A stretch of 32,000 bases of DNA from Pseudarthrobacter sp. P1 (GCF_050156935.1 NZ_CP189584.1:1195263-1227262); one strand, 5' to 3'. Shown: positions 20,411 to 21,241, numbered from the stretch's first letter. The notes: generated by a model from the letters alone, not told the origin. A program made the numbers and translations.

Positions 20411-20430
20411 CAGTTTGACCTTAGGCGTCA

Positions 20431-21225
20431 TCACTCTTCTTCACTTTCTGAGGGGCGGCTGAGCTTCGCTGCATCTTCTACGCAGTGCTTACAGCCCGGA
20501 TTCATTATGCCTTTATTTGTGTGGTGTCGCGTGTGCGCATTCCGCTGGCTCGACGGCCGGGGGATGCCTTTCATCGCTGCCGAGAGTTTGGCCCTCGTTT
20601 CCGGAGAGACCGTCTTGCCAAAGTTCGGATTGCTGGCTCCCTTGCGCATCTCGGAGAGCGCCTGCTTTGACTCCTCGGACATCACGTGGCCGAATCCAGG
20701 ATGTTCTGGACCAAACTTGCCGAAGTTCGGGTTGTCTTCGCCAGAGTGGCTGCCTTTCCTGTCTCTGGACCATTTTTCCCGTTGCACCAGGCTGTGATTC
20801 TTGCCGTGGAAAGGATTCTCGGCGCCTGGGCGGCTCAAACCTTTGCGACCGGTAGAGCGGATTCTGGCTGCTTCACGCTGCTCCGCCGTCCACACCACGC
20901 CCGTCGGTCCGAGTCCGCCGTCGGAGATGTTCAGCAGATCATCACCCTGGCTGCGCAGATACGCAATCCATTCGATCTCCGCCTGGCCCAGATCCGGCAA
21001 CTCGTCCAACACATCAAGCACCTCGGCGACGACATCGCCCTCGAGGTGCTTGCGCATCCAATCATAGAGCGGCGTCTTGCGCCCTTCCCTGGCATTGCGC
21101 TGGTGCTGGTGGAACCGGCGCGACAGGGTCTTGGTCGTAATACCGACATACCGGTATTCGCCTGACGTTCTCAGGCGAATACCGTAGACGATCCCTGTCG
21201 CGCCTTCGGTCCCAAACAGGTCCAT
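20431..21225 (-). CDS. Free-standing GIY-YIG homing endonuclease with NUMOD3 repeats (I-TevI/Seg/Mob-like)
   Basis: GIVYGIR-x-YRYVGIT (GIY-X10-YIG), then SRRFHQH, AEIEW and LLNIS in I-TevI-like order. Three NPxxGK modules follow ([44 protein letters not shown]). Third codon positions are A/T-richer than in the flanking genes. Confidence 0.85.
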
Positions 21226-21241
21226 GGCTAGCTATGCACCC

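Follow-up and report, generated by a model that had tools for sequence, protein, structure and literature searches.

A free-standing GIY-YIG gene of the homing endonuclease type between nrdE and nrdF in a chromosomal class Ib ribonucleotide reductase operon

A 32,000-nucleotide stretch of the Pseudarthrobacter sp. P1 genome (NZ_CP189584.1:1195263-1227262), referred to here as the window, carries a free-standing homing endonuclease gene (HEG) of the GIY-YIG/NUMOD3 type between nrdE and nrdF, the genes for the large and small subunits of class Ib ribonucleotide reductase (RNR). The best explanation of the sequence data is that this HEG belongs to an old, I-TevI/Seg-like family specialised on the DNA directly downstream of class Ib nrdE in Actinomycetota. 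It is probably an active, or recently active, homing endonuclease gene that spreads by cleavage of empty alleles and recombinational repair. A first-pass annotation made from the sequence alone had proposed a free-standing GIY-YIG/NUMOD3 HEG in a chromosomal class Ib RNR operon, and this proposal is supported by profile hidden Markov model (HMM) searches, by polymorphism of the insertion among relatives and by HEG-linked tracts at the edges of the flanking genes.

The gene and its product

The HEG is an intact reading frame of 264 codons on the minus strand (20431..21225) with an ATG start. It begins after a 16-nt spacer (GGGTGCATAGCTAGCC, 21226..21241, minus) that follows the TAA stop codon of nrdE (21242-21244, minus). 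The HEG stop codon TGA (20431-20433, minus) shares one base with the ATG of nrdF (20429-20431, minus) in the sequence GTGATG (20429..20434, minus), a 1-nt overlap (TGATG) that takes the form ATGA in relatives. The first-pass annotation had read the same open reading frame (ORF) and the same 16-nt spacing, which the sequence confirmed, and had placed the TGA against several possible nrdF starts; alignment with relatives picks the ATG at 20429-20431 and disfavours 20410. The stop/start overlap implies that nrdF would be translationally coupled to the HEG.

The HEG is free-standing, with 16 nt of noncoding DNA on one side and 0 nt on the other, with nrdE and nrdF uninterrupted and with no Rfam intron. 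An overlooked self-splicing intron or intein that encodes the HEG is almost certainly not the explanation. The only NCBIfam match of the protein is to TIGR01453, 'group I intron endonuclease', and RNR genes are well known to attract introns and inteins (PMC2248736, PMC3653736), but the TIGR01453 score of 49 bits lies under the cutoff of 56.05. No Rfam family was matched anywhere in the window, so there is no group I intron, and there is no intein because nrdE (723 aa) and nrdF are complete and of normal length. The 16-nt spacer is too short to hold a promoter or a ribozyme, and the downstream side offers no space at all. A simple scan restricted to the sigma-70-type consensus found no promoter-like site near the HEG and no terminator-like site on the operon strand, and a HEG with its own promoter or terminator was rejected on the result of that scan.

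The protein scored above the Pfam cutoffs for both domains named in the first-pass annotation, and the NUMOD3 match (PF07460) was strong (E = 7.5e-16, 58.2 bits against a cutoff of 20.4). The best PHROGs match is phrog_314, 'homing endonuclease' (2e-20), and phrog_5123, 'homing endonuclease with GIY-YIG motif', was also matched (5e-5). An AlphaFold model built on 48 relatives has a predicted local distance difference test score of 84-92 across residues 10-100 and is poor in the C-terminal half. The top three PDB matches of the model in Foldseek are the I-TevI catalytic domain (1mk0/1ln0), with a target template-modeling (TM) score of 0.76-0.78, a root-mean-square deviation of 2.8-2.9 A and a probability of 1.00. 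A PDB sequence search with the single HEG protein returned nothing relevant, the family profile gave only a weak PDB match to the I-TevI DNA-binding domain 1i3j (E = 0.033), and hhalign against an I-TevI sequence aligned only a NUMOD3-like stretch (I-TevI residues 165-197), weakly, leaving the catalytic domain unaligned. The identification of the catalytic domain therefore rests on Pfam and the fold search.

The predicted GIY-YIG catalytic domain spans residues 10-100 (20926..21198, minus). Its motifs, as first annotated, are present and invariant or nearly so in 48 family members: Y14, Y24, R37, H41 and E83 are invariant, and Y26 and N99 occur in at least 90%. From their spacing, the Y/Y/R/E/N residues are taken to be equivalent to Y6, Y17, R27, E75 and N90 of I-TevI. 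The predicted NUMOD3-type DNA-binding region (residues 124-222; 20560..20856, minus) contains the three NPxxGK modules that the first-pass annotation had listed, at residues 137-142, 165-170 and 199-204; Pfam scores one NUMOD3 stretch separately, at residues 179-215. Beyond it lies a cluster of two histidines and two cysteines, H231/H235...C245/C248 (HTRHHTNKG-x5-C-x2-C; 20482..20535, minus), that is invariant in the 48-sequence alignment. The H-x3-H...C-x2-C arrangement is a possible zinc site in a part of the model where AlphaFold confidence is low. The protein ends in an acidic SESESES/SESEEE tail encoded directly before the nrdF start (20434-20457, minus), which may be shaped by the translation signals of nrdF and not by protein function.

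By every test that sequence allows, the product is predicted to be an intact I-TevI/Seg-like GIY-YIG enzyme. Pfam gives no HNH match, and the nuclease domain is GIY-YIG; the HEG is not a member of the T4 Mob family, though it is MobE-like in position. In PADLOC the NUMOD3 region matched a generic 'homing endonuclease' model and nothing else was returned, and assignment to a defence system was rejected on this basis. The existing annotation in Pseudarthrobacter sp. P1 reads only 'NUMOD3 domain-containing DNA-binding protein'.

The operon runs on the minus strand from nrdH, which is glutaredoxin-like and its first gene (23941..24186; Pfam Glutaredoxin, 4e-17), through flavodoxin-like nrdI (23383..23880; Flavodoxin_NdrI, 6e-46) and nrdE (21242..23413; RNR_N, Ribonuc_red_lgN and Ribonuc_red_lgC, 7e-160) to nrdF (19457..20431; Ribonuc_red_sm, 9e-97). 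The flanking genes are ordinary chromosomal genes (a LysR regulator, MetE, MTHFR and an ABC transporter), and no phage or integrase genes are present in the window. The first-pass statement that no phage, integrase, intron or intein sequence lies nearby holds for all four; it is qualified by one insertion sequence-type DDE transposase (Pfam DDE_Tnp_1_6, DUF772; 30122-31696, minus) that lies ~9 kb from the HEG and is unrelated to it.

Occupied and empty alleles of the junction

A genome collection was scanned with NrdF as the query, so that occupied and empty junctions were both returned, and 80 related nrdF loci were obtained. The HEG is present at five of them: Arthrobacter oryzae CC159, Arthrobacter sp. 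Bi26, Arthrobacter sp. ISL-72, an Arthrobacter metagenome-assembled genome and Paenarthrobacter sp. NyZ202. The first-pass annotation had held that an ORF present in all relatives, with host-like composition, would mark an old domesticated gene; comparison of the junctions instead revealed a clear presence/absence polymorphism, with 5/80 loci occupied. Most other junctions are 35-225 bp long. Those of the Arthrobacter group are typically 90-125 bp, and an empty junction of this group typically contains the ribosome-binding site of nrdF and a G+C-rich hairpin of 17 bp (shuffle z = -6.7).

A tree was calculated from nrdE and nrdF with the gene ends left out. Occupied loci are scattered singly on this tree, and the nearest neighbours of each are empty; for example, the occupied locus L003 and the empty locus L006 are 97.8% identical. 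Close relatives with an empty junction include Arthrobacter sp. 49Tsu3.1M3 and A. humicola JCM 15921. Parsimony in the 43-locus Arthrobacter group requires five events if the pattern arose by gains and 14 if by losses only. L003 falls inside a clade of otherwise empty loci, and the junctions of this clade vary through small indels and substitutions at scattered positions; this pattern speaks for a gain in L003.

The ends of both flanking genes differ between the two alleles. HEG-linked recoded tracts cover the last ~8 codons and the stop codon of nrdE (AAATTGTGTTTCCTGTCAGCTTTAA; 21242..21266, minus), delimited by pairwise mismatches and the G+C content of third codon positions (GC3), and the first ~11 codons of nrdF (20399..20431, minus), delimited by GC3 statistics and pairwise edges. 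The nrdE tract uses A/T-ending synonymous codons, and Asn replaces Gly at codon -7. Edge statistics were compiled for six occupied and 37 empty loci. GC3 of the last 10 nrdE codons is 0.45 in occupied versus 0.84 in empty loci (p = 1e-4), and that of the first 10 nrdF codons is 0.55 versus 0.88 (p = 2e-4), while the next 30 codons on either side are alike (p 0.9). Occupied loci are enriched in a TGA stop codon (5/6 versus 8/37, p 0.007), in Asn at nrdE codon -7 (4/6 versus 1/37, p 6e-4) and in a TCN serine codon at codon -4 (6/6 versus 13/37, p 0.0045).

The boundaries of the tracts are sharp. Mismatches between L003 and L006 in successive 30-nt bins number 0, 2, 0, 0, 0, 0, 0 and 9 over the last 240 nt of nrdE and 7, 1, 1, 0, 2, 1, 2 and 2 over the first 240 nt of nrdF, whereas control pairs of two empty loci at similar distance have a flat profile. 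Three parts make up the unit that differs between alleles, namely the last ~25 nt of nrdE, the cassette and the first ~33 nt of nrdF, and nearly all of the changes in the recoded tracts are synonymous. The first-pass annotation had pointed to the nrdE 3' and nrdF 5' ends as places to look for co-conversion, and short HEG-linked tracts are present in both. Such edges are what would be expected of a short co-conversion tract or of an immunising, recoded target. The nrdE tract may represent the homing site in an immune form, or it may be the interval from the cleavage site to the insertion site.

HEG loss is documented by a remnant. Arthrobacter frigidicola (L043) is HEG-free and keeps 102-106 nt of the 3' end of the cassette (E about 1e-29), 85-86% identical to the cassettes of L002, L003, L004 and L011 and still in frame with a stop codon that overlaps nrdF. 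A locus from a viral-contig collection (L094) carries HEG-specific frameshifts and is a candidate for decay. L084 was withdrawn as a HEG pseudogene; all of its genes are split over several frames, a matter of sequence quality. The remnant and the L094 frameshifts show that decay occurs, and no copy of the group has diverged further than the one in the window, whose identity to any other does not exceed 73%, so the HEG could be pictured as an inactive relic drifting to loss and retained since its deletion would disturb nrdF translation. This is very unlikely: the ORF is intact, as a single high-scoring segment pair, in all of the genome and metagenome loci examined, the catalytic residues are invariant, and the ratio of nonsynonymous to synonymous divergence (dN/dS) is about 0.1, where a drifting gene would near 1. 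The measured range of dN/dS is 0.06-0.15, which is at odds with a drifting relic.

A few HEG-free junctions hold unrelated larger inserts (L009, L041, L045 and L069). The mid-sized gaps of L009, L041 and L045 were rejected as decayed HEGs, having no HEG similarity even at E = 50, no Rfam match and unrelated mini-ORFs. They contain an insert of ~540-650 bp with a G+C content of 0.55-0.57 (L009 6351-7003; L045 6465-7000; partly L041 6406-7000), found in A. globiformis NBRC 12137 and two other genomes, whose mini-ORFs include the Arg/Ile-rich peptide MARTIRRISRTIRITIRPL and MAKGSYRSAKTGRYVTPKYGKSHPSTTVKESK. The nrdE-nrdF junction may be a general insertion hotspot. The short repeat 'ccggtggtcgagc(c/t)tgtcgagacc' stands directly past the nrdE stop in the empty junctions of L001, L014, L015, L019, L027 and L066, with three tandem copies in L015, and looks like a small dispersed element or one resembling repetitive extragenic palindromic (REP) sequences. 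In Arthrobacter sp. N1 (L069, 5000-7010) a C-terminal fragment of nrdE is followed by a 376-aa ORF of unknown function and then by nrdF, an arrangement that resembles a second nrd locus or a rearranged one.

Relatives in other hosts and the shared site

Metagenome contigs were scanned with the family alignment, and 80 loci were returned. Among the loci that are at least 39% identical and whose upstream sequence can be read, all 70 have the NrdE C-terminus directly upstream. The next gene downstream is nrdF in 46 of the 70, no nrdF was found within the 281-3,500 bp available in 19, and five have too little downstream sequence; the only loci without nrdE are the three weakest matches (27-37% identical). 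The viral-contig collection yielded 11 full- or near-full-length relatives, all directly after nrdE, and several of its contigs also belong to the metagenome set, so that the two counts overlap. The host of one relative is a marine Microbacterium, and the hosts of several have a G+C content of 42-55%.

In Nocardia-type loci the HEG follows nrdE and is itself followed by a convergent RDD-domain gene, with nrdF elsewhere in the genome. Gene order is the same in N. asteroides (NrdE 98% identical) and N. brasiliensis, which lack the HEG, and in N. rhizosphaerihabitans, which has it. In the occupied allele the cassette takes the exact place of a 51-nt spacer, with its hairpin, that is present in the empty allele. 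Taken together, the loci show that the one sequence common to all occupied sites is the 3' end of the nrdE coding sequence, where the conserved C-terminal Cys-x-x-Cys motif is encoded. The placement at the nrdE-nrdF junction given in the first-pass annotation is correct for the window and does not hold as a rule. Around codons -20 to -7 the nrdE of Nocardia occurs in two versions, …LEGTSVEG… and …LQGTEIEN…, independent of HEG presence (L081 versus L190/L193), which suggests mosaic recombination near the insertion site.

The 158-kb contig L088 (IMGVR_UViG_3300047444_000753) encodes a Sak4-like protein, an SSB and an HNH endonuclease, and a family member sits between nrdE and nrdF in its nrdHIEF operon. 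With this gene content the contig is probably from a genuine phage, and a phage of this kind is a possible vector of the family. An HNH endonuclease ORF (phrog_2255, 6e-34) lies at 7220-7654 on the plus strand, ~540 nt downstream of nrdF, so two different endonuclease genes flank or lodge at the RNR operon of this contig. Two distant GIY-YIG/NUMOD3 paralogues are present on each of the viral contigs L093 (2011-2712 and 5001-5624) and L095 (3181-3654 and 6093-6626), which have no nrd genes. These paralogues share ~30% identity with the HEG protein of the window and are the nearest members unlinked to nrdE. Among the IMG/VR contigs L083-L087, L089 and L090 (4-14 kb), several show only the nrdHIEF operon and the HEG, and one is a fragment of a Microbacterium chromosome by exact protein match. 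Short contigs of this type may be cellular and not viral DNA.

A full-text literature search, with most subscription journals outside its coverage, found no paper linking NUMOD3 with nrdF or describing a free-standing endonuclease at this actinobacterial site. The post-nrdE family of HEGs in actinobacteria is apparently undescribed.

History, homing and comparison with known systems

Composition says little about origin. The first-pass annotation had taken A/T-rich third codon positions as an argument for foreign origin. The lower GC3 is real (0.70 for the HEG versus 0.92 for nrdE and 0.93 for nrdF) and is the lowest of 15 genes in the window (z = -2.5), but the argument is weak alone because nrdI is nearly as low (0.735) and nrdE and nrdF are unusually codon-biased. 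Low GC3 was rejected as proof of foreign origin for the same value of nrdI. A recent phage origin was rejected because the best phage-database matches are just 31-37% identical. A claim that HEG lineages are far older than their hosts, based on a synonymous divergence (dS) of 1.13 versus 0.16 for nrdI between L003 and L011, was withdrawn: the nrdI of L011 is a 31-codon fragment, and weakly biased flanking genes have HEG-like dS between occupied hosts. The low dS of nrdE and nrdF is probably due to their strong codon bias (GC3 0.92-0.93).

Several observations weigh against spread by homing. HEG identity correlates with host NrdF identity (Spearman 0.79), near-identical HEG copies were not found in different species, no HEG pair at least 75% identical was found in hosts whose NrdF proteins are at most 90% identical, and synonymous divergence of the HEG between occupied hosts approximates that of weakly codon-biased host genes; part of its history could be vertical. 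The recoded start of nrdF could serve translation initiation instead of homing, given the loss of the native ribosome-binding site. In Nocardia the recoded tracts follow HEG presence less clearly: the HEG-free N. asteroides has an A/T-rich nrdE end and one occupied locus a G/C-rich one. The GIY-YIG match itself is marginal in Pfam (PF01541, E = 3.9e-5, 24.3 bits against a cutoff of 22.6), and the sole NCBIfam match is the one that falls under its cutoff. HEG identity follows the hosts, and divergent hosts were not found to share similar HEGs, so the data give no direct indication of recent long-distance spread, and recent long-range transfer was rejected. The closest relative of the window's HEG is 73% identical and HEG divergence broadly tracks the hosts, so the HEG is not a recent arrival. 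The picture is of an old family that moves among fairly close relatives and has been lost repeatedly; movement among close relatives is expected if homing needs homologous flanks.

The same observations could be read as domestication, with a former homing endonuclease now serving the host as a DNA-binding regulator or translational coupler that sets the level of NrdF, or as a nuclease that cuts phage or other foreign DNA entering the cell with empty-type nrdE alleles. Strong purifying selection (dN/dS 0.06-0.15), the long tie to one site with broad co-divergence and the lack of near-identical copies across species fit this idea, as does the position of the HEG stop codon, which overlaps the nrdF start in virtually every occupied nrdEF locus, with loss of the native nrdF ribosome-binding site. 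The related copy in a phage-like nrdHIEF operon implies, in addition, that phage and host nrd genes meet. Yet just ~12% of close relatives carry the HEG, scattered singly, relatives with 98% identical NrdE lack it, the deletion remnant of L043 exists, and PADLOC points to nothing more than the generic homing-endonuclease model. Purifying selection is equally expected for a homing endonuclease that survives by repeated reinvasion, and domestication is unlikely. A related idea, that the family persists by paying its way as an operon-embedded exclusion or defence nuclease that cuts empty-type nrdE on incoming DNA, especially that of nrdHIEF phages, seems quite improbable; under it, the coupling of nrdF would make the HEG addictive, and its loss would disturb NrdF synthesis.

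Homing of a free-standing endonuclease gene is the preferred explanation, and a cycle can be proposed for it. The HEG would lack a promoter of its own and be transcribed with the nrd operon. The NUMOD3/C-terminal domain would bind an empty allele at the nrdE stop and the adjacent hairpin, and the GIY-YIG domain would cut within roughly the last 25 bp of nrdE. Empty and occupied alleles could meet in one cell through conjugation, transduction, transformation or a phage that carries an nrdHIEF operon. The break would be repaired from the occupied allele, and the repair would copy in the cassette with a few dozen flanking nucleotides. Occupied alleles would be immune, the hairpin having been removed by the insertion and the nrdE and nrdF ends synonymously recoded. 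The cassette would replace the native nrdF ribosome-binding site, leaving nrdF to be translated by coupling to the HEG stop, and simple deletion of the HEG would be costly because of this coupling.

The free-standing GIY-YIG Seg endonucleases of T4 (SegA-G, for example SegB) are phage genes that act in co-infection (PMC2330249; PMC2988022). The HEG resembles them as a free-standing GIY-YIG homing endonuclease type seated between conserved genes; Seg features are intronless homing, co-conversion of flanking markers and a target in the neighbouring conserved DNA of genomes that lack the gene. Unlike the Seg genes, the nrdE-linked family resides in cellular chromosomes, inside an operon, with presumed translational coupling to the gene downstream, and is just ~30% identical to any phage homologue. 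T4 MobE is also a free-standing endonuclease gene between large- and small-subunit RNR genes; it lies between nrdA and nrdB, has no promoter and relies on transcription from upstream, it targets the 5' end of nrdB, and polymorphisms of the nrdA 3' and nrdB 5' ends are co-converted (PMC2790892). MobE, a nicking enzyme of the HNH type, belongs to a phage operon of class Ia, whereas the HEG is GIY-YIG, resides in cellular operons of class Ib and has the 3' end of the large-subunit gene as its constant neighbour. In Aeromonas phage Aeh1, a mobE insertion splits nrdA into two genes (PMC3045599). Both there and here an endonuclease gene is embedded in RNR genes and RNR function is retained despite the insertion, but here both subunit genes are intact and just the intergenic hairpin and ribosome-binding site are replaced.

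I-BthII is an intron-encoded GIY-YIG enzyme of the nrdIEF operon in the Bacillus cereus group (PMC2248736). Unlike I-BthII, found in self-splicing introns that interrupt nrdE or nrdF, the HEG is intergenic and intronless and its hosts are Actinomycetota. With I-TevI, from the td intron of T4 (1mk0, 1ln0, 1i3j), the HEG protein shares the GIY-YIG catalytic fold (target TM 0.76-0.78) and a NUMOD3-type element in a modular C-terminal DNA-binding region. It differs from I-TevI in not being intron-encoded, in an identity of just ~22% and in having the C-terminal H..H...C..C cluster in place of a zinc finger and helix-turn-helix. I-TevI cuts ~23-25 bp upstream of its own insertion site, a distance close to the length of the ~25-nt recoded nrdE tract.

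What is new is a known kind of HEG in an unusual niche, inside an operon of a cellular chromosome. Family proteins are labelled just 'NUMOD3 domain-containing DNA-binding protein', and short contigs with the HEG are filed in a viral-contig collection though they show nrd genes alone, two practical points for annotation. Nearly all work on free-standing homing endonucleases has been done in phages, whose donor and recipient genomes meet during co-infection. The family described here is large and natural to bacterial chromosomes, lies inside the class Ib RNR operon and is always at one site. Occupied and empty alleles, a remnant and sharply bounded flanks are on hand in culturable Arthrobacter, Pseudarthrobacter, Paenarthrobacter, Nocardia and Microbacterium. 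How a HEG spreads and persists in cellular populations, how it spares the host operon and whether phage RNR operons carry it between hosts are now addressable in these bacteria.

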